Assembly (NCBI GenBank): GCA_024277995.1
Contig: JAJRUD010000139.1
Span: 2,194-66,193, forward strand
Length of the DNA: 64,000 bases
Source: Chloroflexota bacterium
Lineage (GTDB): Bacteria; Chloroflexota; Anaerolineae; Anaerolineales; E44-bin32
Reading direction: 5' to 3'
Part shown: piece by piece, positions 8,518 through 58,449 of the stretch
How positions within the stretch are numbered: position 1 is the stretch's first letter
Layout of the letters: the number at the start of each line of letters is the position of its first letter
Notes under the pieces: generated by a model
The model's input: only the letters and a program-made list of their open reading frames with translations
What the model was told of the DNA's origin: nothing
Databases searched by the model: none
Position numbers and translations under genes: made by a program

Positions 8518-9204
8518 TCAACGGCCGCCGCCCCGCAGCCAGCGGACCAGACCGCGCACCAGCAGGGCGCCGAACAACGTACCAAGAGCGACGAATATGA
8601 AGGCGTCGCGCCAGAAACGTTCCGGGAAGAGCCGGATCAGCGTGTCGCTGTAGGCGAAGAGCCAGGTGTTCCCCTGAAAGAACACCCGGTGGAAGCCCAC
8701 AAAGAAGATGGAGAAGCCCAGGAACAAAGCCAGACCCAGGGCCACCATGATGGCCAGCGTCAGTTCTGCACCGCGACGCAGGCCCTCCGCAGCCACAGCG
8801 CGCTCCCCCGATAGGCTCAGGCCTCCCGCCAGCAGCACCAGCGCCCCGAGCGAGAGCGCCCAAACCTTCAACGCCCCCTGCGTCAGCCTCTTCACGTCCA
8901 CCATGTGGCGCAATTCGCGCGCGTTGTACACGGGCTCACCATTGTCGAATTCCAGATCGGCCAGAAACTCGATGCCTTCGTCGTTCATCAAGTAGTCCAG
9001 CGCGATGGGCGCCCATCGCAGGCGGTCCTCCAGGGTGAAACCATAGCCATCCTCAGGGAAACCCGGCATGCGATATTCGAGGCGGATGAAGGCATCCGTC
9101 ATCAGCAGGCGAACCGAAGTGAGCACCAGCACGACGGGCACCATCAGGATCAGGAGCCATCGCGCCAGGCGCAGGACCAGGTCACGTGAACCAACAGCAG
9201 CCAT
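8518..9204 (-). CDS. TIGR01906/DUF1461-family integral membrane protein
   Basis: 228-aa ORF. An N-terminal TM helix is followed by the loop YRMPGFPEDGYGFTLEDRLRWAP...ELRHMVDVK and then 3 C-terminal TM helices. I recall this architecture from that family. It follows the preceding gene after GGAGGTTAGGAATG. Confidence 0.7.
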   Translation of the reverse strand: MAAVGSRDLVLRLARWLLILMVPVVLVLTSVRLLMTDAFIRLEYRMPGFPEDGYGFTLEDRLRWAPIALDYLMNDEGIEFLADLEFDNGEPVYNARELRHMVDVKRLTQGALKVWALSLGALVLLAGGLSLSGERAVAAEGLRRGAELTLAIMVALGLALFLGFSIFFVGFHRVFFQGNTWLFAYSDTLIRLFPERFWRDAFIFVALGTLFGALLVRGLVRWLRGGGR

Positions 9205-9206
9205 TC

Positions 9207-10775
9207 CTAACCTCCAACCGATGGGACCATGTCAAAGCCACCGCCGAGCATGAAGCGCAGGACGATGGAGTTGACCAATTGCTCAACAGGGGCGTGATCG
9301 TCAGTGAAAACGATGTCGACGTCAGGCGTGGGTTGCAGATTGTCCGCCGCGCGGCGCGCGACGCTCAGCAAGAGCGGGTGGACGCCCGGCTCATCCTCCA
9401 GCGCCCGCAGGTTGAGGCGCAGATTGTCAGCGGTCGTCGGCGCCGCCGTGGCGTAGACCAGCGTGTTGAAGGTGTCCGGCACGTCGACCACGTGTACGCT
9501 GGGGAAGACGGCGCTGATCGTCCCGACCAGGGCTTCCACCAGGCGCCGGTCCTGCGGTGTGCGCCCGACGTTGATCACCAACACGCCTGCCTGGTCCAGG
9601 TGATCTTTGACCTCCTGGAAGAACTCTACCGTGGTCAACTGCCAGGGGATGTAGGGCGGGCGATAGGCATCGACGGCGATGACGCTGTAAGTGTAGGGGC
9701 TGTTGCGCAAACCCCACCTGCCGTCCATGACATAGGCCCGCAGGTTGGGCTCCGTCATGTCAAAGAAGCGCCTGCCCACTTCGATGATCCTGGGGTCGAT
9801 CTCCCAGCCATCGATGGGTATGGACCCAAAGACGGCAGTGTATTGCTTGGGGATGGTTCCTGCCGCCAACCCCACGATCCCCACCCGCCGCACATCCTGC
9901 AGGTTGAGGGGGGGATCGCTGAACAACGGCGCCACCAGAAAGTAGTCCCACGTCCCGAAGGTCTCCAGCCTCTCCGGGTTGTAGACGGAGTGCACCGCCT
10001 GGCCCTCGTTGAGCATGAGCATGCGCGTGCCCTCGAGCTCGACCACCTGGATGTAGTTGTAGGCGGATTCGGTCTCGTAGATCTGGCCGCGGCTTTGCTT
10101 CAGCGGACCGGTCAGCGCCAGCCAGCTGAGCAAGATGAGCGCCAGCGGCATCAGGAAATAAGGCGCCGCCCGCCGCAAACCCATTGTGAGCACGACGCCT
10201 GCCAGAGCGACGCTCAGCAGCAAGAGGCTCAGCACGAGAAAGGTGCGGCTGGTCCCCAGGGTCGGGATCAACCAGAGCACCGGCAGGAAAGTCCCCAGGA
10301 TCGATCCCAGGGTTGAGATGGCATAGACACGCCCCGAAATCCGTCCGGCTTGCGAGGCGTCGCGCAGCGCCAGGCGGATGGCGAAGGGCGAGACGCATCC
10401 CATCAGCGTGATCGGCACGCTGAAAAGAATGAGCACGCCCAGGAAGGATCCCACCATCACCGCCGCGTCCAGGTGCTCGACCGCCGCTGCGGCCTGGCGC
10501 AGGACCGGGCGCGCCGCCAGCGGCACCAGACCGGCGAAAAAGGAAGCCCACGCCAGCAGACGATAGAAAGTCCGCCCGTGGGGAGAACGGTCGGCCCAGC
10601 GACCGCCGATGAAGTATCCTGCCGTCAGATAGACCAGGATCAGGCCGATGATGTTGGCCCAGACGATGTTGCTGGTGCCGAAAACGTTCCCCAGCAGGCG
10701 CGAGGCGGAGAGCTCGACGCCCAGGGTCGTCATGCCGGCAAAGAATACTGCTACGTAAAGCCAAAGGCTGTTCAT
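9207..10775 (-). CDS. fused polytopic membrane domain + spermidine synthase-like methyltransferase-fold protein
   Basis: 522-aa ORF. About 7 N-terminal TM helices are followed by a C-terminal SpeE-like domain (VGIVGLAAGT, VIAVDAYRPPYIPWQLTTVEFF). GGAG RBS. The gene ends in TAG. Confidence 0.8.
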   Translation of the reverse strand: MNSLWLYVAVFFAGMTTLGVELSASRLLGNVFGTSNIVWANIIGLILVYLTAGYFIGGRWADRSPHGRTFYRLLAWASFFAGLVPLAARPVLRQAAAAVEHLDAAVMVGSFLGVLILFSVPITLMGCVSPFAIRLALRDASQAGRISGRVYAISTLGSILGTFLPVLWLIPTLGTSRTFLVLSLLLLSVALAGVVLTMGLRRAAPYFLMPLALILLSWLALTGPLKQSRGQIYETESAYNYIQVVELEGTRMLMLNEGQAVHSVYNPERLETFGTWDYFLVAPLFSDPPLNLQDVRRVGIVGLAAGTIPKQYTAVFGSIPIDGWEIDPRIIEVGRRFFDMTEPNLRAYVMDGRWGLRNSPYTYSVIAVDAYRPPYIPWQLTTVEFFQEVKDHLDQAGVLVINVGRTPQDRRLVEALVGTISAVFPSVHVVDVPDTFNTLVYATAAPTTADNLRLNLRALEDEPGVHPLLLSVARRAADNLQPTPDVDIVFTDDHAPVEQLVNSIVLRFMLGGGFDMVPSVGG

Positions 10776-10802
10776 CCCATTCTCCAGGAATTGAAACCCG
10801 AT

Positions 10803-12158
10803 TCATGCTGATCGCAGGATGCGGGGCTCTCGACCGCCTATGGCCGCCTCTTCCAGGCTTGCTCGCAATGAGGCGCCATAGCCGATCGTGCTCGTCGGAT
10901 AACCCTCGCGGCGAGCCGCGGCGGCCAGCCGGGCCGGGTTCCCGCTTCCTCCGAAGGTCGATCGATCGAGCAGGATCAAGACCGGCCAGAGGCCAGCGCG
11001 ATGCATTTCGCGTGCTTCCACCAGCAGCTCATCGTTGACCGCCGGGGTTATCAGATACACCGTCGATCCGCGCGGCAGGCGATCCCCCTCGATCCGCAGC
11101 GCATGGATCAGCGAGACGCTGCCAGCCGCCTGAAAGACGGCCAGCGATTCCAGGATGCGGTTCAACTGCGCTTCACCGCGGTCAGCCTGGAGCACCTGCC
11201 GCACCTGTCCATAGGCCACCAGCCCCACTGCTCGATCCCTCTGGTAGAAGTAGAAGGCCAGCGACGCCGCCAGAGTGACGGCATACTCTTCGGTGCTGGG
11301 GGGCAGCGGGAGCCGCGTCTCCGCCCATCTCTCCGCCAGCCCCAGGCTGAGCGATAGATCGTCAACGGCATGCTCGACGTGCACCGACCGCGCGCCGTCG
11401 AGGACGATCCATACCTCGGTCATCGGATCGCGCTCGAACTCCTTGACGATCAATCTTCCGCGGCGGGCGGTCGAGCGCCAGTGGATGCGGCTCATGCTGT
11501 CTCCCGGTGCGTAGTCGCGCACCCCGGCCGCGTTGGGCGTCACCTGATGCGTGCTTCCCCGTAGCGCCTCCCCCCCAGGAAGCCTTCCACCCGGGAGCGG
11601 CACCCGCGAGAGGGCGACGATGGTGGGCAGCACGACGACGTGATACGACTGCGGAAGGCCCACACAGCGCGTAAACAACCCGAAGGGGTCGCCGGAACAT
11701 GCCTCGGCCGGGCCGATGCGGAAGCGCCCGCGGCGCGTGCACAGCGTACGCACCACCCACGAACGGGTCTCGTGCGCCGCCACGCCGCCGAGCACCGCCG
11801 ATGCCCGGTGACCCGGTTTCGACATCGAGCCTGACGAAAGGATGCCCGCCAGAAAGGTCGGCGCCCAAGATCCTGGGAGCTCGGAGTGATCGCGAACGTC
11901 GAGCCATAATTTGGGCAGCCAACTGTCGTTGCGCAGCGAGAGGCGCTCCACGAAGAGGTGGCCCACCTGTGCCCTGAGCGCGCGCGGTTTCCGGTGCAGA
12001 GAGAGACCGGACACCGAAACGCGTGCCCACACCCAGGAGCCCGCCAGCAGCGCTCCCCAGAGGTAGGCTAGTGAGAAGAGCAGTGTCCGTCCCGAGGCCA
12101 GCGCCGCGAACAGGCTGACGGCGAAGAGGCCGAGCACGACGCGCGCCTGGGCGGACAT
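10803..12158 (-). CDS. DUF58 domain protein (MoxR-associated, vWA-like)
   Basis: Two N-terminal TM helices, then VRDYAPGDSMSRIHWRSTARRGRLIVKEFE, the DUF58 signature. ATG 12158 overlaps the moxR stop by 1 nt (TGATG). Confidence 0.85.
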   Translation of the reverse strand: MSAQARVVLGLFAVSLFAALASGRTLLFSLAYLWGALLAGSWVWARVSVSGLSLHRKPRALRAQVGHLFVERLSLRNDSWLPKLWLDVRDHSELPGSWAPTFLAGILSSGSMSKPGHRASAVLGGVAAHETRSWVVRTLCTRRGRFRIGPAEACSGDPFGLFTRCVGLPQSYHVVVLPTIVALSRVPLPGGRLPGGEALRGSTHQVTPNAAGVRDYAPGDSMSRIHWRSTARRGRLIVKEFERDPMTEVWIVLDGARSVHVEHAVDDLSLSLGLAERWAETRLPLPPSTEEYAVTLAASLAFYFYQRDRAVGLVAYGQVRQVLQADRGEAQLNRILESLAVFQAAGSVSLIHALRIEGDRLPRGSTVYLITPAVNDELLVEAREMHRAGLWPVLILLDRSTFGGSGNPARLAAAARREGYPTSTIGYGASLRASLEEAAIGGREPRILRSA

Positions 12159-13105
12159 CAAACGATCTCACCCCCCGGCGCTGGCACCATGCGCAGGAGA
12201 CGCTTCAGGATTTCGCGCGCATCCACCTCGCGCACGCGCGCCGCAGAGCTCATGATCAGGCGGTGGGCCAAGGCCGCGACGGCCAGCGCCTTCACATCGT
12301 CCGGCAGCACGTACTCCCTGCCGTCCAGCGCCGCTCTCGCCTGAGCCATCCGGAAGAGGGCCAGGCTGCCGCGCGGACTGGCGCCGAGGTACAGGTCCTC
12401 GTGCTCCCGCGTCGCGTTGACCACGTCGACGATGTACTGCTTGATCTCCTGCGAGACCCCCACCCGCCGCACCGCCCGCTGCGCCTCGATCAGCTCCTCC
12501 ACCCCGACGACCTGCTCCAGATTCTCGAGGGGATGCACCAGCTTCTGTTCCTCCAGCATGCGCATCTCATCCTCGGGAGCTGGATATCCAAGGCTGATGC
12601 GCATCAGGAAGCGGTCCATCTGCGCTTCAGGCAGGGGAAAGGTGCCTTCGTATTCGATGGGATTCTGAGTCGCCAGGACCATGAAGGGCTTCGGCAAAGG
12701 ATGTGTGACGCCATCCACCGTGATCTGGCGCTCTTCCATGGCTTCCAGCAGAGCGGCCTGCGTCTTGGGCGTAGCGCGGTTGATCTCATCCGTGAGCACG
12801 ATCTGGGCCATGACGGGCCCCGGCCGGAACTCGAACTCCTGTGTCTTCTGGTTGTAGATCGACACCCCGGTGACGTCGCTCGGCAGCATGTCCGGTGTGA
12901 ACTGAATGCGGTTGAAGGAACACCCTAGAGAGCGCGCCAGGCTCTTGGCGAGCACGGTCTTTCCCGTGCCCGGCACGTCCTCGATCAGGATATGCCCCTG
13001 ACAGAGCAGGCCGATGACCGTGAGGCGCACGGCCTCCGTCTTGCCGACGATCACTCGTCCCACGTTGTCGATAATCGCCTGGGCAAGCTGTCGCGTCTCA
13101 AGCAT
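12158..13105 (-). CDS. MoxR-family AAA+ ATPase
   Basis: 315-aa ORF. Walker A DVPGTGKT, Walker [24 protein letters not shown], and a typical MoxR C-terminal lid. GAGGAG RBS. Confidence 0.93.
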
Positions 13106-13184: not shown

Positions 13185-14279
13185 TCAGCCGTTGAGCAGA
13201 AGAGCGGATAGGGCGATCCAGAACCAACTGTAGGCCAGCGGACGTCGTGCGTTCCTGGCTGCGGCGTAGAAAAGCGTCGCCAGCACCAGGCCCGTGGCGA
13301 AGCGAAGCAGCCCCAACGGCTCCCTGAAGGTTGAGAAAGGCAGGAATATCACAGCACCTGCGTTGGCCAGCAGCGCCCACGAGACAGCATCCCCTTTGCC
13401 GCGCCAGAGGTCCCTGATGCCCACCGCTGTTCCCCACAGCGCGGGCAGGACCACCGTCGGCCCGAAGGCGGCCAGGAAGACGGCGAGCACCTTCGTGCTC
13501 ACCTGGCCGATGCGCAGCAGCCCCATCAGCGGGATCCATTCGAAAGGCGTCGACATCGCGCCACCGCTGCCGATCCCCGGCCGGCCGAAGGTGCGCCACA
13601 GCCACAATTGCCAGAGAGCGAAAGCTATCCCGCCCGCCGCCAGCGCCGTTGCCCGACCCGATCGCCGATTGAACAGCGCCTCCAGCAGCAATGCGCCCCA
13701 AAAGAGGATGGTGGTCTCCTTGGCGAACAACGCCAAGCCGGCCAGGAGCGCGGCCGTCGCCGGCTTCTCGCGCACCCAGGCCAGCCAGGCACCCGCCACC
13801 AGCGCGTATGCCAGGGGCTCGTGCAGATCCACCCCCACGGCCGCCACAAGGCCCACCCACAACCCGTACACCAGCGCATGTCCCGGTCGCCGCCCGTAGC
13901 TGACCATGACTTCGCCGACGGCCAGCGTGCCCAGGAACAGCGAAGCCAGATTGAGCGCGATCAGGCTCCATCCGATCCGCTCCACCTGTCCCAGCGCCAG
14001 CGCCCGCGCCAGCATGGGGTAGAGCACGCGCTGGTAGCGATATGCAGGGACGTCCAATCGCGGGGCCACGCTCTCCGGCCTGGGATCGACGGCCATGTAG
14101 TAGGCGAACTGCCCGTCATATCCCTGGCTTCCGGCGATGTTGCCGCCGTCGTAGCGCTCTCCGAGCTCCGCCAGCGCAACCGGGTCCCACCCACCCACCG
14201 CCAGACGCCACAACACGTACGCCAGGGCCACGGCCAGGGAGAGGAAAGCCGGCCAGGTGCGTTTCAACTGCGTCGCCAT
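13185..14279 (-). CDS. polytopic membrane protein, family unassigned (putative surface-glycopolymer assembly/GT-C-like)
   Basis: I trimmed ORF 13185..14459 to ATG 14279 ([24 protein letters not shown]); the upstream part overlaps the YfhO gene and is Arg/Gly-rich. About 9-10 TM helices. The first loop contains [17 protein letters not shown]. Confidence 0.6.
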
Positions 14280-16522
14280 CGCCAGATCAGGAAGACCAAC
14301 ACAGACCAGCCGGCCAGCCCCAGGCCGAGCCCCAGGAAGTATGAGGCCGGCTGATAGCGGAAGACGATCTCGTGCTCGCCAGCCGGCACATGTACGGCGC
14401 GGAACAGGAAATCCGCGGCGTAGATGGTCGCCTCGCGCCCATCTACGGCAGCCCGCCACCCCGGATAGAACGCGTCGGACAACACGACCCAGCCGCCCTG
14501 GGGGCTGCTGGCGTGCAGCACCACGCGCCGCGGCTCGTCCACCGTCAGTTCAACGTCCCCTGGCCGTCCCCCGGCCGGGATCTCCCCCTTTGCCGGCTTG
14601 CCCTCGATCACGGCCTGCCGCTCCGGATCGAACCCCTCATCAAAGACCGCCGCCAGCGCGGCCTCGGGGGTATCAACGTAATCCACCTGCGTCACAATGC
14701 GCACGCGAGCCGCCCCCTCAACGGGCGCGTAATCGACCCAGGGCGGTTCGTCTCCGCGCGCCACGGCGCGCCAGCCCACGTCCATCAGGCGCAGCCACGC
14801 CTCTCGCTTTTCGGTCGGCACTGCTTCAAGACGCGCCATCCATGACGCATAGCGCGACGGCAGGATGGGGTCGAAGTTGTTGGCGGAGGGCAGGCCGTCG
14901 AGCATGGTCGCGTTGGGCAGCCCGGCTGCCCGCACCTGGCGCCAATCGATGTCCGGGCTGAAGGTGTCGAAGCGGTGCGTGCGCTTGAACTTTATCTCCC
15001 TTTCAATGTCTGCCGGCATATAGAGCCGGTGTCCATCGTTCAGGCGGGCCGCCAGCGGGCTCTCGCCGCGGAAGAGATCAAGCGAGGTCGTCGGATTCAG
15101 CCCCCACCCTGCCACGACCAGGTCGGCCAGAACGATCAGCCCCACCACCGCCTGATAGGCGCCTGTGCGACGCTCATCCGGCACCAGATGACAGACGCCC
15201 GCGGCCGCCATCCAGAGCCCGGCCATGACCAGCGCCGCGGGCGCCGTCCGCACGACGCCGGGTACCAGCCGACTCCCGAGGGCGGCGAAGAACACGATCG
15301 ACAGGCTCCCGGCGAAGGCCAGACGCGACCAATATAGCGCCCGACCCTGGGGCGACCGCCACGCCGCCGCCCCCAACCCCGCCAGCATCGAGAGCGCGAA
15401 GACCATCCAGATCGACCAGCGTGTGGGAGCCTGGAAGAGATCGAAGGTCGGGACAGTTCTGTAAAGCAAAGGGAAGAGCGGCGTGTTTCTCCCCAACGCC
15501 AGCAGCAGGGAGACGCCAGCCAGCAGGCTGAGGAAACGCGCCTCACGCCAGGTCGGGATGCTGCGCCGCCAGCCGCGCACCACGGCCGCCATCGCCAACA
15601 GCAGGGGCAGCACCCCCACGTACGCAGCGTCCTCCCAGTAATTCCCGTAGCCCCAGTAGTCGCCCATGGCGGGGTTGCCGAAGAGATTGGGCGCCAGCAG
15701 CCCCAGCAGCCGCCACGGCCAGAAGGAATAGGTCATGACGAACTGAGGGTCCAGCGCGCTGGCGCGCTGTGAGTTGGCCATGTACTCCAGCGTCGGCAGC
15801 AGTTGCGGCGCCGCCAGCAGGAAGGCCAGGCCCCCAGCGGCCGCCATCCACATCCCCACGCGCAGCAGCAGCGGTGCTCCTCCCCTTTGCCACGCTCGCC
15901 AGACCGCCCAGACCAGGGCGAGCAGCAGCGCGTACCAGGCCGTCTGTGCGTGCCCGGCCAGCCACTGCATGCCCAGGATCACGACCAGCCAGGGGAACGC
16001 CCTGGCGATTCGCCGCTCACGGCACTGCGCCACCAGGCGCTCCGCAGCCAGGATCAACCAGGGCAACCAGGCCGCCGTGGCGTTGATGCTCAGGAATCCG
16101 GAACGCGCCACCAGGTAGCCTGACAGACTGAAGGAAACACCCGCCAAGGCCTGACTCACCCTGGGCAGCCCCAGCTCCCTGGTCAATAGCACCATACCCC
16201 AGCCGGCCCAGGCCAAATGAATAAGCACCAGCAGCCCATGCCCCCAGGCCACGTCGACGATGGCCAACAGGAAGTTCGGCGGGTAAAGCAGCGCCGACTG
16301 GTAATTCGCCAGCAGGGGGGCGCCCATCCCCAAGAGCGGATTCCACAGAGGCAGATCCCCCCGGCGGAGCAGGTCCAGCGCGTAATCCCGCCAGGGGACG
16401 AACTGCAGCAGGGGCGTCCCCCAGAAGAGGGCCTCGCCGCGCGCCAGCATCGGGCCGAAGAGAGCCAGCGGTCCCAGCAGCACCAGCAAGGCCGGCCACT
16501 GGCGCCTCACCAGGGATCTCAC
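14264..16522 (-). CDS. YfhO-family polytopic membrane protein (copy A)
   Basis: PLWNPLLGMGAPLLANYQSALLYPPN near the N-terminus, many TM helices, and a C-terminal beta domain FYPGWRAAVDGREA...GEHEIVFRYQP plus a final TM helix, typical of YfhO. I chose the GTG start at 16522 because it forms a GTGA overlap with the upstream stop. Confidence 0.8.
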   Translation of the reverse strand: MRSLVRRQWPALLVLLGPLALFGPMLARGEALFWGTPLLQFVPWRDYALDLLRRGDLPLWNPLLGMGAPLLANYQSALLYPPNFLLAIVDVAWGHGLLVLIHLAWAGWGMVLLTRELGLPRVSQALAGVSFSLSGYLVARSGFLSINATAAWLPWLILAAERLVAQCRERRIARAFPWLVVILGMQWLAGHAQTAWYALLLALVWAVWRAWQRGGAPLLLRVGMWMAAAGGLAFLLAAPQLLPTLEYMANSQRASALDPQFVMTYSFWPWRLLGLLAPNLFGNPAMGDYWGYGNYWEDAAYVGVLPLLLAMAAVVRGWRRSIPTWREARFLSLLAGVSLLLALGRNTPLFPLLYRTVPTFDLFQAPTRWSIWMVFALSMLAGLGAAAWRSPQGRALYWSRLAFAGSLSIVFFAALGSRLVPGVVRTAPAALVMAGLWMAAAGVCHLVPDERRTGAYQAVVGLIVLADLVVAGWGLNPTTSLDLFRGESPLAARLNDGHRLYMPADIEREIKFKRTHRFDTFSPDIDWRQVRAAGLPNATMLDGLPSANNFDPILPSRYASWMARLEAVPTEKREAWLRLMDVGWRAVARGDEPPWVDYAPVEGAARVRIVTQVDYVDTPEAALAAVFDEGFDPERQAVIEGKPAKGEIPAGGRPGDVELTVDEPRRVVLHASSPQGGWVVLSDAFYPGWRAAVDGREATIYAADFLFRAVHVPAGEHEIVFRYQPASYFLGLGLGLAGWSVLVFLIWRWRRS

Positions 16523-18126
16523 CCCCCGCCTCCCAGGCGGGCTTCCTGCGGCACCGCGTACAGCATCACGTCTTCTCCGGCATATACCAGCCGCAGGAAA
16601 CCGGGATCGGCCGGATCCCACGCCCCCATTTCGCGCTCATGCGGCCCCCAGAAGACGTAGGCTACGTCATGTTCGGCCAGGAAGCGTCGCCGCGACCACT
16701 CAGCGCCCTCCCCCGCGAAGAAGGATTCCACGCGCGGCATCAGCTTCGCGAGACCAACGGTTTCCGGTCCATGGCCCACCACCACGCGCACGGCCGCCCA
16801 GGCCGGCAGCGCGTTGCCGACGCCGAAGGATGAAAGCACGACCTGGCCAGGTTCCGCATTCTCGGCCAGCCACTGGAAAGCCTCCACCTCCGGCGCTGCG
16901 CGGTAGGCCGGTTCGCCAGGCCGGAGCGCGATGGTGATCCCGCTGCCCAGCAGGAGCGCCGTTGTGGGCAATGAGAGCGCCAAGATCGCCAACGGCACCC
17001 AGCGCCACTTCGCAGGCCGGGTCCGTACGCCGCTCAGCGCCATCGCCGCCAGAACGAGCAGAGCCACCCATATCCCCTCCGGCAGCCGGCGCTGCAAGTT
17101 GTGAGGAGCATAGGCCAGCAGGGGAAAGGCCAGCAGCCACGCCACGACCAGTAACGGGCGCACATCGCTCTTGCGCAGCGCCCTGAAGGCCCCCGCTACC
17201 GCCAGCGGCAGCACCAGTGCGAAGGCAACCAGGTAATGCCATATCGGCGGTGAGAGGATCCGATTCTGCAGGGTCCATTGCCGCAGAAAAGGGTCGCTGG
17301 AGAAAGCCGCTGCGTAGGCGAGCACCAGGGGCAAGACCGGCAAGGTCGTCCGCAACGCCGCACCCCACCAGGCCTTCAAACGGTCCCAACCGATCCGCCC
17401 CCAGAACCGCCCCAGCAGAGCAATCTGATGGGCGCCGATCACGGCATAGGCCGTGACCACGGAAAGGGGCTGGACCAGCAGGAGCGCCACCAGCGTCAGG
17501 CCCGCCCGCCGCGAGCGGCGCGCTTCATCGGCCGCCTGCAGGTAGTCGGCCAAAGCGAAGAGCAGCATCGCCCGCGCCAGTACCAGGTGCGGCATTCCGT
17601 AGATGGCGAGAAACCCGAAGGTCTCGGGAGAGTACAGCGAGAGGGGCGTGGTGGTCCCCGTACCTCCCAGGGCCAGCAGGAGCATGATCCAATCGACGCC
17701 GGCGCCGAGCGTCGCCATCACCGTCACCCAGCGCCTGGCCTTCGGCTTCTCCAGGAACAGGGCGGCGAAGCGATAGGTGGCGCCGACGACCAGTACGATG
17801 GATGCGACGCGAAACAGATGATAGAGGGCGACCAGCTGTTCATGCAGCCCCACTCCGCCGGCCAGCTTGCCGAGCAACATGAAGGGCAGAAAGGCGATCA
17901 CTCCCGCCTGGGATGCCGTGCTGTAGGGCGTGCGGAAGAGCCAATTGCCATATGTGCCGAGCATCATCTTTGCGATGTACGAATTGCCATCCTCCACGGC
18001 GAAAAGGAAACCTGTGAAACGCCAGGCCTCCCCCGCCGTGCTGTAGGCGAGGACATAAGGCGCCGTCGTCAGGAGGATGAGCACCAGTGCATAGCGCCAC
18101 TGCCACGTGCGCTCGTCTTTACTCAT
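16519..18126 (-). CDS. polytopic membrane protein, GT-C-like, unassigned family (paralog B)
   Basis: Start at ATG 18126 (MSKDERTW), which forms an ATGA overlap with the upstream YfhO stop. About 12 TM helices. It shares the motifs DGNSYIAKM, YAPHNLQRRL and LPAWAAVRVVVGHGPET with the 20279..21862 protein. Confidence 0.6.
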   Translation of the reverse strand: MSKDERTWQWRYALVLILLTTAPYVLAYSTAGEAWRFTGFLFAVEDGNSYIAKMMLGTYGNWLFRTPYSTASQAGVIAFLPFMLLGKLAGGVGLHEQLVALYHLFRVASIVLVVGATYRFAALFLEKPKARRWVTVMATLGAGVDWIMLLLALGGTGTTTPLSLYSPETFGFLAIYGMPHLVLARAMLLFALADYLQAADEARRSRRAGLTLVALLLVQPLSVVTAYAVIGAHQIALLGRFWGRIGWDRLKAWWGAALRTTLPVLPLVLAYAAAFSSDPFLRQWTLQNRILSPPIWHYLVAFALVLPLAVAGAFRALRKSDVRPLLVVAWLLAFPLLAYAPHNLQRRLPEGIWVALLVLAAMALSGVRTRPAKWRWVPLAILALSLPTTALLLGSGITIALRPGEPAYRAAPEVEAFQWLAENAEPGQVVLSSFGVGNALPAWAAVRVVVGHGPETVGLAKLMPRVESFFAGEGAEWSRRRFLAEHDVAYVFWGPHEREMGAWDPADPGFLRLVYAGEDVMLYAVPQEARLGGGG

Positions 18127-20282
18127 AGCCATCGTGAGCCTATCACAGCCAGGGCCAGGGTCATCAAGCTGATCCCCAACCCTACGAAAACGCGCCATGG
18201 ACGGAAGATGAACCTCACCTCGTGCTCGCCCGTGCCCAGCCGCACACCTCGCAGCAATCCATGGACCGGCTCGATGGGGGTGCGCTGCCCGTCGACCTCA
18301 GCCTGCCATCCCGGGTACTCCACTTCGCTGAGCACCAGCAGGCCAGGCCCTTTCGCCCGTACCCGGATCGCGTTGGGCGTCCATTCGAGCAGACTGGCAG
18401 CCTCGGGTGCGTACCCCTGCCCGTCGCCGTGCTCGACCCACACCCTGGGACGCACCTGCGGATTGCGATAGAGGAGCACGCCCTCCGTGGTCCGCTCCAG
18501 TTGAAGGCCCGCCGCATGGAGCGGGAAATCGGAAAGGATCCATCCCACGTTCAATACCCCCAGCGCCTCCAGATCCAGGTGTGTTCTCCAGGGCGCGCGC
18601 GGATCGCCTGTCGGAAAGGGCGGCAGGGTGACGCTGTACTCTTCGCCGTCAAACCCCACCGCCCCGCTCATGTATTCGCGATATGCGCTGAGCTGCAGTG
18701 GGTTCACGCCATCGGCCAGTTCCAGTCCGAACCTGGCGGCGACGTGCTGGGGAACAGCATAGGAAGGCGAGAATATGCGCACCCGCCCCGCCGCCTGCAT
18801 CGCCTCACCCAGCCTGGCGCGCTCTTGCATGGCCGGCCGCACGCCTTTCACAGTCAACAACGTCGCGTCGACGAACGCCAGATCGAACACCACCAGTGCC
18901 AGAATCGTGCCCAACACGAAGGCGGCTGGCCCCTTTCCAGCCAGCCCATAGGCCAACACCACGAAGCCGCCCAGTGCCAGTGCCCCGACCAGCAGGCCCG
19001 CGCGCGCCACTCCGGCATTGGAGGCGCCGGCCACGATGGACAGGCAGAATCCGAGCCCGCTGATCGCCAGGGCGACGCCGAAAAGCACCATCCTGGAGCG
19101 AGCGGCGGTCGTAACCCCGCGCCATATATCGCTCAAGCGTTCCAAGCCCCGCGCGGCGAGCATCGCGACGGCCAGCCCGGCGATGAAGACCATGCGCGCC
19201 GGCACCCTCAGCAATCTCATGCCCGGGATCACGGATGAGACTGCGTCATAGAACCACGCCGGTCTGGCCGTGGCCAGCAGCAGGGCCAGCACACCAGCAG
19301 CCAGCCAGAACCACGAGCGGCGCTTCGCCTGCATCAGCCCCAGGGTCGCCAACATGAGCGGCAGCAGGCCCATGTAGGTCTGCCACTCTCCCCACCCCCC
19401 CAGATCGGGGATCACGATGCCGAGCAGTCTGCCCACGGGCAGGGCCATGGCCGTCCGCTGTGCCGCGCCCAGGTCAGCGCGCGTGCTCAGGCGGGCGAAC
19501 TCTTCCAGCGGCAACCAGAGCGCGGCAGCGGCTCCCGCGGCAATCGCCCCTGCGACCGCTATCACTGCAGCCCATCGTGCGGCGAGGCGAGGGGACATCC
19601 AGGTCCGCATATTGTGGCTATGCGCAGCCTGGCGCAAAGAATAGGCCACCGCCAGGATCCCCGCCGGCACCGCCCAGCGCGGGTCGGCCAGGAATAGCGC
19701 GCCCAGCGTCAGCCCGGCCGCAAAGACCCTGCGTGACAACCAATCCCCCTCCCCGGCCGCCCCCTCACCCAACCGACCCCACGCCGCCACCACCCAGGGC
19801 GTCCAGCTCACGGCGTATACCAGCGTGACGTGGCCCAGCGCCACGTGCGCCACCAGTTTGGGGCTGCCGCTGAAGACCGCTCCGGCCAGGAACGCGGCGG
19901 CCCTTCCCAGCCCTTCGCCCCGCGCCAACCGATAGGCGCCCACCCCGCCCCAGACCAGGTGCAGCCAGAGCAACAGGTTGAAAGTCAGGGGCGAGGGCCA
20001 TATGGCCGTTGGCCAGTTCGGCGGGTACCAGAGACTCGCCAGCGGGTCGGCGGCCAAGGGCTGGCCGCTCAGAATGAGAGGGTTCCACAAAGGGACTTGC
20101 TGCCACAGGGCAAGGCCGCGCTGAATCAAATAGGCGTTCGGCAGGTGGGCGATGAGCAGGTCTGTGAACTGGGCCCCCGGCTGATAAGGCACGCCCGTCG
20201 GATCGCGCGCCAACGGCGAGAGCCACAGCAGGCCGAGCAGTAAGAACCCTGCGCCCACGAGCAGGCGCCGTCGCCCGCTCAT
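18123..20282 (-). CDS. YfhO-family polytopic membrane protein (copy B)
   Basis: Internal ATG 20282 of the 1180-aa ORF (MSGRRRLLVGAGFLLLGLLWL), forming an ATGA overlap with the upstream stop. PLWNPLILSGQPL...WYPPN near the N-terminus and a C-terminal YPGWQAEVDGQ...GEHEVRFIFRP. Confidence 0.8.
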   Translation of the reverse strand: MSGRRRLLVGAGFLLLGLLWLSPLARDPTGVPYQPGAQFTDLLIAHLPNAYLIQRGLALWQQVPLWNPLILSGQPLAADPLASLWYPPNWPTAIWPSPLTFNLLLWLHLVWGGVGAYRLARGEGLGRAAAFLAGAVFSGSPKLVAHVALGHVTLVYAVSWTPWVVAAWGRLGEGAAGEGDWLSRRVFAAGLTLGALFLADPRWAVPAGILAVAYSLRQAAHSHNMRTWMSPRLAARWAAVIAVAGAIAAGAAAALWLPLEEFARLSTRADLGAAQRTAMALPVGRLLGIVIPDLGGWGEWQTYMGLLPLMLATLGLMQAKRRSWFWLAAGVLALLLATARPAWFYDAVSSVIPGMRLLRVPARMVFIAGLAVAMLAARGLERLSDIWRGVTTAARSRMVLFGVALAISGLGFCLSIVAGASNAGVARAGLLVGALALGGFVVLAYGLAGKGPAAFVLGTILALVVFDLAFVDATLLTVKGVRPAMQERARLGEAMQAAGRVRIFSPSYAVPQHVAARFGLELADGVNPLQLSAYREYMSGAVGFDGEEYSVTLPPFPTGDPRAPWRTHLDLEALGVLNVGWILSDFPLHAAGLQLERTTEGVLLYRNPQVRPRVWVEHGDGQGYAPEAASLLEWTPNAIRVRAKGPGLLVLSEVEYPGWQAEVDGQRTPIEPVHGLLRGVRLGTGEHEVRFIFRPWRVFVGLGISLMTLALAVIGSRWL

Positions 20283-21862
20283 AGACCAGGCACCTCGTAC
20301 ACTGCCACCTCGCCGAACCGGGCACGCTCCACTACCAGGGACAACCACGCCGGCTCGCCCGAGGTCAACTCCTCCGGTCCGAGCAGGACCCAACTCACAC
20401 CCAATCCCCGCAATCGCTCCAGGCCCTGGCGGGCATCCCCATTCCAGGTCAGCAGCGACCTCATTAATGCTTCCGCCTCTGCGGCGTTCGGCGTCTCGAA
20501 GGGGTGGCCGTAGACCACGCGCACGTCGGCGAAGGCCGGCAGACGGTTGCCGTTGTCGGTTCCGGTGAGGACCAGCGCGTCCGTCGGCAGATGGCTGTCC
20601 ATCCAGGAATAGGCCGCCCGCTCCTGGGCGGAATAGGTCACCGGCGACCTCCCCTGGCGCACACCCAACAGGCCGAGGCCCACCACCAATGCATTCGACG
20701 GCACCGACAGGAGCAGCACGAAGATCAGCATCCGCCGCACGTCGCGGCCCCGTCGGCGCAGCTCTTCCAGCCCCTCCACTGCCAGCACAGCCAGCGGGAA
20801 ATACAGGCCCAACGCCAAGCGGCGTTGAAGGGGAAAAGGAGCGTAGAGCAGCGCAGCCTGGATCACGATCCAGACCACCATCAAGCGCCCACGTGGGGTC
20901 GGCCACGCCCTGCGCGCTCCCAACGCTGCCAGCGGCAGCAACAACCCGAAGCCCAGCATGTACGCCCACGGGGAGGGCGAAGGGGTCTGGTTCTGCTGGG
21001 CCCAACCAGCGATGGCGGGGTGCACGACCGTCAGCCAGGCGTCGTAGGCCGCCCACGGCATCACGCCCAGGACGAAGGCCCCCAGGGTGAGCAGCGAATG
21101 AAGGACGGAGGGTTCTCGCACCCACGCCGAGAGGCTGAGCGGGCGGCGTTTCAGATACTCGACGCACAGCCACGCCGGCACCACGGCAGCGGGAATGGCA
21201 GCCGCAAAGGGCTGGACGGCGCCGACGACCGTCCCGGCCAGGAGCGCCAACGCAGCTAGCCGCGCCAGGCGGCCCTCCGCCACCACGATGCTCAACAAGC
21301 CCCCCAGCAATGCAGCCGCCGCCACGCCGAAGTGGGCGTTCACGTACACCGTCAGGAAGGGGATCGATTCCGGCACGGTGAGATCCGATCCCAGGAAGCC
21401 AAAGGGCACGCCCAGCCACCCGAGTCCCCCGCCAACCATGATGAGCAAGACGGCACCGGCCCACTGTGCGGGTTCGTCCAACGCCCAGCGACAGAAGCGA
21501 ACAACCAGCAAGAACAGCGCCATACCCCCCAGCAGCCTGGCCCCATGGTAGACGGCGAGCGGAGCAAGACCTGAGGCGCGCGCCACGTGGCCCAGGAAAA
21601 GGTGATAGACGAAGAGGAAGGCCGGCTCGCCCGGCCGGATGGTGTACGGCAGGCGAAATGCCCACGCGCCCTGATAACCCTGTCTCATCTTCGCCAGATA
21701 GGTGAACCCATCAGCCGGGTTGAGCAGGAATCCGCTGAAGACCTTGTCCCGCGGCGTCAGCCCGGGCGCGAGCAGATAAGGCGCGAGGGTCAAGAAGAGC
21801 ACACCGAGGCCGAAAAGCAAGAGAGGGATGGCAACCTGCCCGGATCCGCGCCGCTTATCCAT
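20279..21862 (-). CDS. polytopic membrane protein, GT-C-like, unassigned family (paralog A)
   Basis: ORF 20279..21922. ATG 21862 (MDKRRGSGQVAIPLLLFGL) is preferred over GTG 21922, which would invade the divergent promoter. Motifs DGFTYLAKM, YAPFPLQRRL and LPAFADVRVVYGHPFET. Confidence 0.6.
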   Translation of the reverse strand: MDKRRGSGQVAIPLLLFGLGVLFLTLAPYLLAPGLTPRDKVFSGFLLNPADGFTYLAKMRQGYQGAWAFRLPYTIRPGEPAFLFVYHLFLGHVARASGLAPLAVYHGARLLGGMALFLLVVRFCRWALDEPAQWAGAVLLIMVGGGLGWLGVPFGFLGSDLTVPESIPFLTVYVNAHFGVAAAALLGGLLSIVVAEGRLARLAALALLAGTVVGAVQPFAAAIPAAVVPAWLCVEYLKRRPLSLSAWVREPSVLHSLLTLGAFVLGVMPWAAYDAWLTVVHPAIAGWAQQNQTPSPSPWAYMLGFGLLLPLAALGARRAWPTPRGRLMVVWIVIQAALLYAPFPLQRRLALGLYFPLAVLAVEGLEELRRRGRDVRRMLIFVLLLSVPSNALVVGLGLLGVRQGRSPVTYSAQERAAYSWMDSHLPTDALVLTGTDNGNRLPAFADVRVVYGHPFETPNAAEAEALMRSLLTWNGDARQGLERLRGLGVSWVLLGPEELTSGEPAWLSLVVERARFGEVAVYEVPGL

Positions 21863-21905
21863 AGTTGACCATTTTACGTCGGAGTGGCCGGGGAGGCCAT
21901 CGCGC

Positions 21906-21935
21906 TTGCGCCCTCCAGCCACCCCACTCTATAAT
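21906..21935 (+). promoter_or_regulatory. promoter TTGCGC-18-TATAAT placed 6 nt before the ATG (leaderless transcript predicted)
   Basis: TATAAT at 21930..21935 and ATG at 21942, with no room for an SD. TTGCGC at 21906..21911. Confidence 0.5.
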
Positions 21936-21941
21936 CTCAGC

Positions 21942-22643
21942 ATGAGCCGCGTCTCGAGCCTTCACCGCCTGCAGCAATTCGACCTGAAGATCGACCGGGC
22001 CACCGCGCGTCTGGAAGAGATCAGGGCCATACTGGAGGGATCCGAAGCCCTGGCGCGATCACGCCAGAAACTGGCCGAAGCGGAGAATCACCTGCGCGCG
22101 GCACGATCGGCCCACAAGGACGCCGAACTGGCCGTTGAAGGCCAACGCACGAAGATCGAACAGACGGAGCAAAAGCTCTACGGCGGGACGGTCAAGAACC
22201 CCAAGGAACTCCAGGACCTGCAGCAGGAGGCGGAAGCCCTCATGCGCTATCTGTCCACCCTTGAGGATCGCCTGCTCGAGGCGATGGTGAAGCTGGAAGA
22301 AGCGGAAGAAGAGGAACGCGCGGCGCGTGATGAACTCGAGCGCACCGAACAAGAACTGGCAAGGGAGCACAATGCCTTGAAGGCGGAACAGCAGGAACTC
22401 GAGGCCGAGGTCGCCCGCCTGAGCGAGGAGCGCGCCGTCGCTGCAGCCAGCACGCAGAGCGACGACCTCCAGACCTATGAGGAGCTGCGCCGACGCCTGG
22501 GAGGCCTGGCGGTAGCCATGGTCGAATCCGGAAGTTGCAGCGCCTGCGGCTTGACCATATCGGCCTCCTTGCTTCAAGTCATCCGAAGGGCGGATGACCT
22601 CTCGCGCTGCACGCAGTGCGGCCGGATTCTCTACGCGGGGTGA
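21942..22643 (+). CDS. coiled-coil protein with C-terminal C4 zinc ribbon (COG1579-like)
   Basis: ATG 21942 (MSRVSSLHRLQQFDLKIDRATARLEEI). A long heptad-rich Glu/Leu/Arg region ends in CSACGL...CTQCGRILY. Confidence 0.8.
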   Translation: MSRVSSLHRLQQFDLKIDRATARLEEIRAILEGSEALARSRQKLAEAENHLRAARSAHKDAELAVEGQRTKIEQTEQKLYGGTVKNPKELQDLQQEAEALMRYLSTLEDRLLEAMVKLEEAEEEERAARDELERTEQELAREHNALKAEQQELEAEVARLSEERAVAAASTQSDDLQTYEELRRRLGGLAVAMVESGSCSACGLTISASLLQVIRRADDLSRCTQCGRILYAG

Positions 22644-22649
22644 CAAAGC

Positions 22650-25058
22650 ATGTTGGTAAACCTCTTCGGTTGGCGCTTCGACTGGCCTGAGTTCTTCGTC
22701 GGCCTGATCGTTGGTATCATTGCCACATGGGCTCTGGGACGCATTCGCGTCGCCTTCAAGCTGCCCACCGCGCTTCTGCAACAGCAGCTCCAATCTTTCC
22801 GCCACAGCATCAACGTCACCGCCCGGGACCGCTACCGGACCGAACTCATCAAGCGGGCCGAGACCCTTCACGTGGCGCGCGCCATCTTCGCCCTGGACGA
22901 GATCCTGGTCGAGCCGCGTCTGTTAGTCCACCCCCAACCCGTGGACCCACAGGGCTCAGAAGCGATCCCAGAGCACGCCCTGGCGTTGTTGCCTAACCTG
23001 CCGGATTGGTCAACGCTCTCCGCCGTCTATCGAGCCCCAACCATCAGTCTCGCGGATGCGCTGGCCAAATGCAGCAGCATTCTGATCACCGGTGAGCTGG
23101 GCAGCGGCAAATCCACGGCCCTGGCCTATCTGGCGATCCGCGTGGCGCAGCGCGACCCCAGCATGGGCGAGACGGCCCAGCTGCTGCCCGTGCTCATCCA
23201 CGCCGCCGATCTGGACCTGGACAAGGATCCGGCCCGCGACCCGATCGAGCCCCTCATCCGCGCCGCTCAGCACACGGCCTCCGGCGGCCTGGCCTCCCGC
23301 ATCCCCGCCTATCTGCGCCTGCAATTCCGCCAGCGCAAAGCTCTCCTGCTGCTGGACGGCCTGGACGAACTCAACTTGCAGGAGTTGGAACGGATCACGG
23401 CCTGGCTGCGCGCCCTGTTGGACGCCTATTCCGGCAACCGCATCGTTGCCGCAGGGCCGCCTGACGGATACGACGGCCTGGTCTCCGCCGGCCTCTCCCC
23501 CATGAGCATGGCGCCATGGACCGAGCATGACCAACGCCTCTTCCTCACCCGGTGGGGAGGCGCATGGCAACAACACGTCATCCCCACGCTCCCCAAGAAC
23601 CGCGTCGGTGACCCCGACCCCGCGCTCATCACCGGCTGGCTGACGGGGACCATTCGCGGGCTGAGCCCGCTTGAGCTCACCTTGCGAGCCTGGTCAGCTT
23701 TCGCCGGCGACGTGCGATCCAACAAGCCCATTGATGATCTGCAGGCTCACGTATCGCGTTTCCTGTCCCCCGAGGAGCGCCAACAGGCCGAAGCCGTCGC
23801 CCTTTCGTGGATACGGGCCGGCAGCAGCTCATTGGAAGAACGCAAGCTCACACGCGGCACACCAGTCAGCGACCTCGTCGATGCCGGTTTCATGATACGC
23901 CGCGCCCGCGGCCGCGTTGGCTTCTTCCAGCCCGCCATCGGCGCATACCTGGCAGCCACGGCCGCCGCCTCCATGGAGCTGCCGGAGGGCCTCGACGACA
24001 AGCTCTGGCTTCCTGCCCAGGCCACTTTGCGCTACTTCGCCGCCCTCGGAGATGCGTCGCCGCAGGCGAGTCGCGCCCTGGCCGAGATAGAAGACCCGAT
24101 CCACGCACGGTTGCTGCGCAGCGCACGCTGGCTGCGTGATGCCCCACCCAAAGCAACCTGGCGCGGCGAGCTTCTGCGCGCCGTTGCGACCATCGCCCAG
24201 GACGCCAATAAACCATACGGCCTCCGCCTGCGAGCGATCCACGCGCTGGTCGCGGCCCAGGAACCTTCCATCAGCATCCTGTTCCGGCGCATGCGCCAGG
24301 CCGAGGCCGCCAGCAGCCGCATCCTGGGCTGCCTGGGCCTGGGCGGAATGGCGGATGAAGAGGCCGTGCAGTCATTGATCGATACCGCCAACGGCGATCC
24401 GGAGATCCTGGTGCGACAGGCAGCCTGCCTGGCACTGGCGGCGATCGGCACAGAGGACGCATTGCAGGGCCTGGGACAGGCCCTGCTGGCGGGCGAGGAA
24501 CCTGTACGCATCGCCGCCGCTGAGGCCCTGGCCATCCACCCCGACGAAGGCTACGCCATGCTGCGCGAGGCCGCAGAGATCGACGACCTGCTCACCAGGC
24601 GCGCCGCCATGTTCGGGCTCGCTCGCATACCCGAGGATTGGGCACTGCAGTTGCTCGAGAAAGTCCAGGTTGAGGACGACCAATGGGTCGTGCGCGGCGC
24701 GGCGGCCGAAGCCGCCGATCGGCGCCGCAATCCGCCCTGGCGCATCCCGGCGCCCATTGAAGATCCGTCCCAGCTGGGATGGCTGGTCGCCTTCGCGGCG
24801 CGCGAGGGGCTCGGCGTCGCGCCAGGGCCTGCCGGGTTGGAAATGGTCCGCCGCGCTCTCACCGCCGGCACCGAAGATGAGCAACTTGCGGCCCTCGAGG
24901 CCATCGGCTGGCTGGGAGCGGAGGATCTGGCGATGGAACTCTATCAGGCGCTGCGCAGCCCCCAACCGCACGTTCGCGACACGGCCTTCGAGGCGCTCTG
25001 GCGCCTGCGTGCTTCGGGCGCAAGCATCCCCTCACCCGCCTCATTCGGTCTATCCTGA
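22650..25058 (+). CDS. membrane-anchored NACHT (STAND) NTPase with C-terminal HEAT repeats
   Basis: 802-aa ORF. N-terminal TM helix FFVGLIVGIIATWAL, Walker A GELGSGKST, Walker B LLLLDGLDEL. The C-terminal ~330 aa consist of repeated ...VR.AA..AL. HEAT/PBS-lyase-like units. Confidence 0.8.
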   Translation: MLVNLFGWRFDWPEFFVGLIVGIIATWALGRIRVAFKLPTALLQQQLQSFRHSINVTARDRYRTELIKRAETLHVARAIFALDEILVEPRLLVHPQPVDPQGSEAIPEHALALLPNLPDWSTLSAVYRAPTISLADALAKCSSILITGELGSGKSTALAYLAIRVAQRDPSMGETAQLLPVLIHAADLDLDKDPARDPIEPLIRAAQHTASGGLASRIPAYLRLQFRQRKALLLLDGLDELNLQELERITAWLRALLDAYSGNRIVAAGPPDGYDGLVSAGLSPMSMAPWTEHDQRLFLTRWGGAWQQHVIPTLPKNRVGDPDPALITGWLTGTIRGLSPLELTLRAWSAFAGDVRSNKPIDDLQAHVSRFLSPEERQQAEAVALSWIRAGSSSLEERKLTRGTPVSDLVDAGFMIRRARGRVGFFQPAIGAYLAATAAASMELPEGLDDKLWLPAQATLRYFAALGDASPQASRALAEIEDPIHARLLRSARWLRDAPPKATWRGELLRAVATIAQDANKPYGLRLRAIHALVAAQEPSISILFRRMRQAEAASSRILGCLGLGGMADEEAVQSLIDTANGDPEILVRQAACLALAAIGTEDALQGLGQALLAGEEPVRIAAAEALAIHPDEGYAMLREAAEIDDLLTRRAAMFGLARIPEDWALQLLEKVQVEDDQWVVRGAAAEAADRRRNPPWRIPAPIEDPSQLGWLVAFAAREGLGVAPGPAGLEMVRRALTAGTEDEQLAALEAIGWLGAEDLAMELYQALRSPQPHVRDTAFEALWRLRASGASIPSPASFGLS

Positions 25059-37620: not shown

Positions 37621-37650
37621 GAAGTCCTTGCTCCCTTGGGAAAGCGACCT

Positions 37651-40671: not shown

Positions 40672-41072
40672 CGCTCGGATATATCTGTTTCTATGGATTC
40701 AATCGCCTTTTTCGGCATGATCACCCGCAGGAAGCCGTCCTGATACAGCGCCTCGATGCCATCCGGATCTATCGCACCGGGCAAGGCTACCTCCGAGAGG
40801 AACTCACCGTAAGCGATTTCCATCTGGTGATATGCCCCCAAATCCCGGCGCTCACGCCGGTTGCCGCGGATGGTGAGCTTGCCTCGCTCAAAGGTGACGT
40901 CGAACTCATCCGCTTGCATGCCCGGGATCTCAACCAACACGACATAAGCGTGCTCGGTCTCGAACAGATCCGTGGGCGGATGCCAGCCATGAGCGTAGCG
41001 CCTGATGCGCCACGCGTACTCCACTGAAACCCAGCCTCTCGGCATGTCAGCAGGATCCTGTTGGTCGCTCAT
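40668..41072 (-). CDS. Hsp20/alpha-crystallin family small heat-shock protein
   Basis: 134-aa ORF. WHPPTDLFETEHAYVVLVEIPGM...AYGEF...LPGAIDPDGIEALYQDGFLRVIMPK is the alpha-crystallin domain. Confidence 0.92.
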   Translation of the reverse strand: MSDQQDPADMPRGWVSVEYAWRIRRYAHGWHPPTDLFETEHAYVVLVEIPGMQADEFDVTFERGKLTIRGNRRERRDLGAYHQMEIAYGEFLSEVALPGAIDPDGIEALYQDGFLRVIMPKKAIESIETDISER

Positions 41073-58390: not shown

Positions 58391-58449
58391 GACGTATCCT
58401 CCTCATAAGGTACGCAAGACGCTGGGGGTTGTGCCTCCGCACACTCTCA

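Follow-up and report, generated by a model that had tools for sequence, protein, structure and literature searches.

What might five overlapping membrane-protein genes be making at the surface of a Chloroflexota bacterium? The question is raised by an 8.7-kb block (13185-21862, minus strand) in a 64-kb stretch of DNA from contig JAJRUD010000139.1 of assembly GCA_024277995.1, which we call the window throughout and which has a GC content of ~66%. The block encodes, in order, a protein that we designate partner A, the YfhO-family protein YfhO-B, a second partner protein (partner B), a second YfhO-family protein (YfhO-A) and finally a 364-aa protein, each of them polytopic. All five genes are of the GT-C glycosyltransferase type, two by Pfam match (YfhO proteins being GT-C enzymes according to PMC8035078) and three by predicted fold. 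Taking this together with the analogy to characterised GT-C enzymes, we regard it as fairly probable, although well short of secure, that the block is one operon of five GT-C-type integral-membrane proteins that would build or decorate a cell-surface glycan from polyprenyl-phosphate donors, and would do so throughout the class Anaerolineae.

The layout of the block agrees with the original prediction, which had been made from the letters of the window alone: the five minus-strand open reading frames (ORFs) lie where it had placed them, all with a coding-type GC content at third codon positions (GC3 0.81-0.85), and the ATGA, ATGA, GTGA and 16-nt overlaps read exactly as it had described them (Table 1). 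A mechanically listed ORF of 1180 aa (18123-21665) is not a gene; the YfhO-B reading frame happens to be open through partner A.

Assignment of the two YfhO copies is straightforward, both scoring above the gathering score of Pfam YfhO (PF09586; 28.5 bits). YfhO-A reaches 72.9 bits, with residues 69-415 matching the N-terminal transmembrane region of the profile, and YfhO-B reaches 39.2 bits, its best stretch being the C-terminal domain (644-705), which is extracytoplasmic. The two are paralogs with 28% identity (E 7e-28), and each ends in a soluble stretch of ~230-250 residues followed by one final transmembrane helix. Both also match the NCBIfam models of PgfM1 and PgfM2 weakly, at 17 bits against an equivalog cut-off of 1400 bits. 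Common to the two ortholog groups are E297/E299, D467 and D694/D664. In the YfhO-B orthologs D41 of the first-loop motif SDLLISHxPN is invariant (65/65), and the YfhO-A orthologs carry T or P at the positions aligned to this motif, their best first-loop column being 76% D/E.

The partners had been described as GT-C-like proteins belonging to no named family, and this description stands. Partner A and partner B are paralogs that are 31% identical over their full length (E 1e-45), neither of them gives a BLASTP alignment with YfhO, and neither has a match in Pfam or NCBIfam. Nor did the PDB yield anything meaningful when it was searched by sequence or profile with the partners' family or with either YfhO copy. 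The fold, on the other hand, is recognizable. With 57 homologs as input, AlphaFold2 produced a very confident model of partner B (predicted local distance difference test score, pLDDT, 94.5; predicted TM-score 0.93), for which Foldseek found 28 matches in the PDB at E <= 1e-3, all of them GT-C (TM-scores 0.47-0.60); at E <= 1e-5, too, the model matched GT-C enzymes exclusively. Matches with a probability of 1.00 included STT3, AglB, DPY19, ArnT (5f15), PglB, AftA and AftD. The best E-values belonged to STT3, AglB and PglB (5e-10 to 1e-5; STT3 6ezn, 5e-10), and the highest query-normalised TM-scores among the top matches were 0.60 for AftD (6w98) and 0.57 for both AftA (8if8) and STT3 (6ezn). 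The model closes with an alpha/beta extracytoplasmic domain that spans approximately residues 405 to 535.

The partner motifs quoted in the original prediction are real and conserved. The motif (E)DG(N/F)(S/T)Y(I/L)AKM, situated just past the first transmembrane helix (TM1), contains D46 and K53 of partner B; D46, in the first outer loop after TM1, is kept in 141/142 family sequences and in both paralog groups. Conservation in at least 141/142 sequences holds for each of D46, E168, H180 and Q345-R346-R347, a set that widens at a threshold of at least 140/142 to D46, K53, R106, E168, H180, W284, Q287, N288, Q345-R346-R347 and E455, while D46/G47/Y50/K53/M54 together with Q345-R346-R347 are kept in at least 137/142. 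An Asp in the first loop is the hallmark catalytic position of GT-C enzymes such as ArnT, PglB and PMT, and by analogy D46 is the candidate catalytic Asp of the partners.

Two other identities for the partners were considered and rejected. They are not oligosaccharyltransferases (OSTs), as both window partners, like 141/142 members of their family, lack the defining OST motif WWDxG; nor are they truncated YfhO proteins, the profile-profile comparison between the two families giving a marginal and local signal only (probability 14-17%, E ~1e-3). The sole Pfam signal within the partner family is DUF6541 (PF20176), seen in 4/60 members at E <= 1, with a best match (P0432) of 29.3 bits (E 3.6e-7) against a gathering threshold of 29; neither window partner matches it. 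On the strength of the modelled fold we place the partners in a separate, unnamed GT-C_A-type family that is restricted to the Chloroflexota.

The fifth and smallest protein matches NCBIfam NF046093, the AZOBR_p60025 family of 'cell surface glycopolymer formation protein', at 145 bits (E 2e-42) over profile positions 9-230 of 232. With the cut-off at 150 bits, we treat it on this sequence match as a close relative of the family and do not call it a member. Its AlphaFold2 model (pLDDT 92) was matched by Foldseek to PimE (9dm5), ALG12, ALG9 and GPI-mannosyltransferase I (probability 0.96-1.0, E >= 7e-3, TM-scores 0.41-0.50), of which PimE was best (probability 1.0, TM-score 0.48); at the sequence level there was no match to any PimE/ALG-type GT-C. 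A GYDGQF motif past TM1, in the first loop, contains D55, which is invariant (47/47). Judging from the model, the protein appears to be a small PimE/ALG-like GT-C-type enzyme.

Conserved order and gene pairing across the Anaerolineae

The block is not confined to this genome, and the linkage of partner and YfhO genes holds far beyond it, in keeping with the original prediction. Close homologs of the partner family number more than 1100; every one is annotated as hypothetical and comes from Anaerolineae or Chloroflexota. In a set of 1.84 billion cluster representatives at 50% identity, 6110 match a partner at E <= 1e-3, and 2478 of them still do so at E <= 1e-30. Scanning a single genome for each GTDB species yielded 355 loci, of which 80 were retrieved for analysis. 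All but one of these are labelled Chloroflexota, and they include metagenome-assembled genomes (MAGs) of Anaerolinea, Longilinea and Ornatilinea. The one exception (L067, JAIWHF010000089.1) is labelled Methanosarcinales and carries a full Anaerolineae-type block with its neighbours, the encoded proteins being 46-72% identical to those of the window; almost certainly this contig belongs to the Chloroflexota and was wrongly binned into an archaeal MAG.

When the window proteins were used as tblastn queries, the relatives showed a fixed order of partner A, YfhO-B, partner B, YfhO-A, the 364-aa gene, MoxR, DUF58, a fusion of major facilitator superfamily (MFS) and spermidine synthase domains, and Lit, with NACHT-HEAT and CT398-like genes on the opposite strand. 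Among loci with enough flank to be counted, YfhO-B adjoins partner B in 66/67, partner A lies upstream of YfhO-B in 55/56, and YfhO-A lies downstream in 60/63 (directly adjacent in 56). The 364-aa gene is present in 42/58 and is absent from loci of the Anaerolinea/Longilinea/Ornatilinea type, and MoxR follows downstream in 40/54. The block is kept in nearly all of the ~80 Anaerolineae species genomes, and all four partner and YfhO genes are present in every Anaerolineae order sampled. Variant clusters also occur. In one (L054, 8467-13301) YfhO-B is missing, so that partner B comes straight after partner A, and the next gene is a 518-aa ORF without a Pfam match; in two others (L070 and L078) partner A, YfhO-B and partner B are followed by a Cys/Met-metabolism gene and YfhO-A is missing.

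The original prediction had described the block as a tandemly duplicated two-gene module, each unit consisting of a partner and the YfhO gene that follows it. The duplicated pairs are real, but the duplication is ancient: because identity between the paralogs is only ~30% and none of the four genes is confined to a part of the class, it predates the radiation of the class, and what we see is a fixed four-gene block and not a recent tandem duplication. The proposed unit of partner plus following YfhO fared less well once junction statistics were taken over 83 loci. YfhO-B and partner B overlap in 56/65 cases (49 of them by the 4-nt ATGA type) and are never more than 37 nt apart, making theirs the tightest junction. 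Partner A overlaps YfhO-B in 39/54 (a 4-nt overlap in 33/54), and YfhO-A overlaps the 364-aa gene in 37/43 (by 16 nt in 16 loci and by 4 nt in 13). The loosest junction is that between partner B and YfhO-A, with overlaps in 29/58 and gaps of more than 30 nt in 14 loci, 4 of which exceed 150 nt; in three loci (L015, L020 and L032) unrelated genes, encoding a histidine kinase, an acyltransferase or a LysE-type translocator, stand between the two. The 364-aa gene and MoxR do not overlap (median gap 119 nt).

Rare fusions point to the same pair. Three representative proteins of more than 1000 aa contain a partner domain. Two of them, P0353 (1391 aa) and P0295 (1216 aa), consist of a YfhO-B-type followed by a partner-B-type protein, joined at the YfhO-B/partner B junction; the third, P0273, was rejected as an artefact, since it comes from a frameshift-ridden MAG. 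P0353 lies outside any cluster, has a repeat-rich linker of 80 aa and a TMEM260_N-type GT-C gene 4 kb away, and its two records (L085, 8001-12176, and L086, 1435-5610) are 100% identical in DNA and represent one population. P0295 (L088, 827-4477) is a seamless fusion within a canonical cluster, on a single short contig. With one population behind the first, one contig behind the second and none among the 65 species-representative loci, we do not accept the fusions as proof of interaction, although they lend weak support to the pairing. Taken with the tightness of the junction, they suggest that YfhO-B and partner B are the best-supported pair.

Proposed function and its alternatives

What sugar donor might such enzymes use? 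The strongest evidence available here comes from relatives. In three loci of a more distant clade, Thermoflexales and related bacteria (L089-L091), the five-gene block is directly followed by a 243-aa GT2 gene and an S-adenosylmethionine (SAM)-dependent methyltransferase gene (300 aa), and in two of these (L090 and L091) by two PMT_2-type GT-C genes as well, giving up to seven GT-Cs and a donor synthase in one string (additions at 13200-14836 in L089, 13113-17638 in L090 and 13202-17665 in L091). Of the proteins with solved structures, the closest relative of the GT2 is 5mlz, the dolichol-phosphate mannose synthase of Pyrococcus (E 4.6e-32); its remaining matches, the strongest included, are mostly polyprenyl-phosphate glycosyltransferases: ArnC, GtrB/sll0501, PpgS, AglJ and PgfS. 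By sequence, the linked GT2 points to polyprenyl-phosphate-sugar donors. Experiments in the literature have linked YfhO enzymes to extracytoplasmic glycosylation that depends on polyprenyl-phosphate sugars (PMC5836110, PMC8035078, PMC12041528). The targets of those characterised so far are teichoic acids (PMC5836110, PMC8035078) or protein regions rich in Ser/Thr (PMC12041528).

In the pathway that we favour, a DPM1-like GT2 would probably make a polyprenyl-phosphate hexose, which would be flipped across the membrane. Each GT-C would then take its sugar from a polyprenyl-phosphate donor at the outer face of the cytoplasmic membrane, as characterised GT-C enzymes do, with the first-loop Asp (D46 in the partners, D41 in YfhO-B, D55 in the 364-aa protein) acting in catalysis. 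The five enzymes would act in turn, adding successive or different linkages to one surface acceptor, most likely a glycopolymer or glycolipid of the envelope that is typical of Anaerolineae. The donor type, the location of the chemistry outside the membrane, the acceptor and the cooperation between the enzymes are all points that we infer.

Several results weigh against this pathway. The 64-kb window contains neither a GT2 nor a flippase gene, so that the donor synthase gene would have to lie elsewhere in this genome, and a search of the window for the GT2, methyltransferase and PMT_2 genes that accompany the block in relatives found none. The neighbouring MoxR, DUF58, Lit, CT398-like and NACHT-HEAT genes give no glycan-specific hint. 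For the 364-aa protein the structural resemblance is weak (E 7e-3, TM-score ~0.48). Finally, the YfhO-A ortholog group has no invariant acidic residue anywhere in its first loop; from its sequence YfhO-A may use a different catalytic arrangement or may be non-catalytic, and thus at least one of the five proteins may not be a conventional catalyst.

The principal competitor holds that the sugars are instead transferred from polyprenyl-phosphate onto Ser/Thr-rich secreted or membrane proteins, as by PgtC2, PgfM1/PgfM2 and PMT. Such protein O-glycosylation is to our minds a serious but still unlikely explanation. The YfhO-family enzymes PgtC2 and PgfM1 do glycosylate membrane-associated proteins (PMC12041528), the pgf operon of Streptococcus mutans likewise has two YfhO-type GT-Cs, the weak NCBIfam matches of both window copies are to PgfM1 and PgfM2, and the best fold matches of the partner (STT3, AglB, PglB and DPY19) are protein glycosyltransferases. 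We nevertheless favour a glycopolymer or glycolipid over a protein as acceptor because the fifth enzyme resembles PimE and the ALG proteins, which are lipid-glycan mannosyltransferases, and matches a family named for glycopolymer formation; because the five to seven GT-Cs per locus suggest a glycan of multiple linkages; because WWDxG is missing in 141/142 partner sequences; and because no candidate acceptor protein is conserved beside the block.

That only some of the five are enzymes, the partners and/or YfhO-A being non-catalytic subunits with a GT-C fold that bind the acceptor or act as a scaffold for a catalytic YfhO, seems to us distinctly improbable. The first loop of YfhO-A, with its best column at 76% D/E, would suit such a role, as would the tight gene coupling, the rare YfhO-B-partner B fusions and an idea put forward as speculation in PMC8035078, namely that acceptor recognition in some GT-C systems may require a second protein, which fits a YfhO-partner complex without proving one. 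Yet both partner groups have kept the first-loop Asp, E168, H180 and QRR after a very old duplication, as active enzymes would, and many GT-C enzymes work alone. Still less credence is due to the proposal that the five are independent enzymes of unrelated pathways, gathered in a conserved housekeeping region and sharing neither product nor interaction. The wider region, with its CT398-like, NACHT-HEAT, MoxR, DUF58, Lit and peroxiredoxin-/glutaredoxin-like genes, is also syntenic across the class, so synteny by itself is no proof of a functional link; but the 4-nt and 16-nt overlaps are conserved only within the five-gene unit, the next gene being ~120 nt away, all five proteins are of one enzyme class, and the Thermoflexales-type loci extend the string with a donor synthase and further GT-Cs.

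Although speculative, it is tempting to go beyond a glycan assembled by successive enzymes. YfhO-B and partner B, perhaps with partner A, might form an obligate heteromeric GT-C complex with two active sites that makes an undescribed envelope glycan of the Anaerolineae, YfhO-A having lost its canonical Asp and become specialised or non-catalytic. We offer this as a tentative idea that is unlikely to be right in full.

Surroundings of the block and other features of the window

The positions of the block, its neighbours and the remaining features of the window are collected in Table 1. Downstream, MoxR begins 79 nt past the 364-aa gene, and the flanking genes on both sides match the block in how well their synteny is kept across Anaerolineae. 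The true start of the CT398-like gene lies near 21942, its homologs being 233 aa long, and the divergent region between it and partner A presumably holds the operon promoter. A promoter scan around the operon did not find a sigma-70 consensus, and a terminator scan likewise gave no usable signal. Elsewhere in the window, a Lon protease gene is interrupted by an in-frame TAG, which separates the N-terminal domain for substrate binding from the AAA+/protease part. The gene could be a pseudogene or a split gene, or the stop could stem from a sequencing error in the MAG.

Table 1. Features of the 64-kb window by position.
Feature	Position	Strand	Remarks
Partner A	20279-21862	-	527 aa; unnamed GT-C_A-fold family (predicted); first gene of operon; GC3 0.82
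YfhO-B	18123-20282	-	719 aa; YfhO-family GT-C (Pfam)
Partner B	16519-18126	-	535 aa; same unnamed GT-C_A-fold family as partner A (predicted)
YfhO-A	14264-16522	-	752 aa; YfhO-family GT-C (Pfam)
Small PimE/ALG-like GT-C-type protein (predicted)	13185-14279	-	364 aa; last gene of coupled unit
Partner A/YfhO-B junction	20279-20282	-	ATGA stop/start overlap
YfhO-B/partner B junction	18123-18126	-	ATGA stop/start overlap; most conserved junction
Partner B/YfhO-A junction	16519-16522	-	GTGA stop/start overlap; least conserved junction
YfhO-A/364-aa gene junction	14264-14279	-	16-nt overlap
Divergent intergenic region, partner A to CT398-like zinc-ribbon gene	21863-21941	.	presumed operon promoter region
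Downstream neighbours	8518-13105	-	MoxR AAA+, DUF58, MFS/spermidine synthase, Lit; not translationally coupled
MoxR AAA+ ATPase	12158-13105	-	downstream neighbour
DUF58	10803-12161	-	downstream neighbour
Fused MFS/spermidine synthase	9207-10775	-	downstream neighbour
Lit (lipoprotein transacylase)	8518-9204	-	downstream neighbour
Divergent flank	21828-25058		CT398-like coiled-coil zinc-ribbon protein and 802-aa NACHT-HEAT protein
Lon protease gene	38047-40698	-	in-frame TAG at 39943-39945
Multihaem cytochrome	57107-58402		431 aa; weak similarity to hydrazine dehydrogenase and decahaem cytochromes
PHP and Schlafen/AlbA_2 domain protein	35863-37650		595 aa

Novelty and relation to known systems

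How much of this is new? The two-component machine suggested in the original prediction is hypothetical as a physical complex, and clustered or tandem GT-Cs that work on lipid-linked sugars are already known, from the mycobacterial Emb/Aft/PimE enzymes with Ppm1, from PgfM1/PgfM2 and from CsbB/GtcA/YfhO, and nothing here indicates a mechanism outside the GT-C paradigm. What is new is a GT-C sequence family with thousands of members and no Pfam or NCBIfam model, its near-obligate and translationally coupled linkage with YfhO paralogs in an alternating four-gene block with a PimE-like gene, and the standing of that block as a class-wide signature of Anaerolineae. No earlier description turned up in literature searches on AZOBR_p60025, on YfhO in combination with Chloroflexi, on DUF6541, on envelope glycosyltransferases of Anaerolineae and on new GT-C families, and as far as the searchable literature shows the linkage of partner and YfhO is undescribed, as had originally been supposed. 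To our knowledge, the envelope of filamentous Chloroflexota is poorly understood, with no lipopolysaccharide and with surface polymers that are unclear. The operon would give genetics a concrete point of entry to what may be a major surface glycan in an environmental lineage that is very abundant, and the partner family, with more than 6000 cluster representatives from metagenomes, would add a new sequence family to the GT-C fold.

Of the families that the partners resemble, STT3, AglB and PglB share with them a first-loop Asp and a C-terminal extracytoplasmic domain; the partners differ from these in lacking WWDxG, in being only 10-15% identical and in having a much smaller extracytoplasmic domain. 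DUF6541, the family that a few relatives match, is itself uncharacterised, and our literature search found no paper that names it.

Among whole systems, the CsbB/GtcA/YfhO machinery for teichoic-acid glycosylation in Firmicutes (PMC5836110, PMC8035078) also employs YfhO GT-Cs with a C-terminal YPGW...GxH domain and a polyprenyl-phosphate-sugar donor made by a GT2, which here is implied through the GT2 linked in relatives. That system, however, has one GT-C, whereas the present one has two YfhO proteins and three other GT-Cs in a coupled operon, lacks a GT2 or GtrA-type flippase within the window, and belongs to the Chloroflexota. The Pgf operon of S. mutans (PgfS-PgfM1-PgfE-PgfM2), considered with PgtC2 (PMC12041528), likewise has two YfhO-type GT-Cs in one operon, together with the donor-forming GT2. 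Pgf has neither a member of the partner family nor a PimE-like enzyme, and its acceptors are Ser/Thr-rich proteins.

The mycobacterial set of EmbA/B/C, AftA, AftD, PimE and Ppm1 offers a further parallel, as several GT-Cs, partly tandem paralogs, there produce one envelope glycan outside the membrane. The parallel extends to individual components, with AftA and AftD matching the predicted fold of the partner, PimE that of the 364-aa protein, and the GT2 of relatives being DPM1/Ppm1-like. The two sets nonetheless come from different phyla and have no detectable sequence similarity. EmbA-EmbB is a GT-C heterodimer, and the paired proteins here come from two different GT-C families and are not paralogs of one; as a candidate fixed pair of this kind, they would extend the principle of the paralog heterodimers Pmt1-Pmt2 and EmbA-EmbB to partners of separate families.

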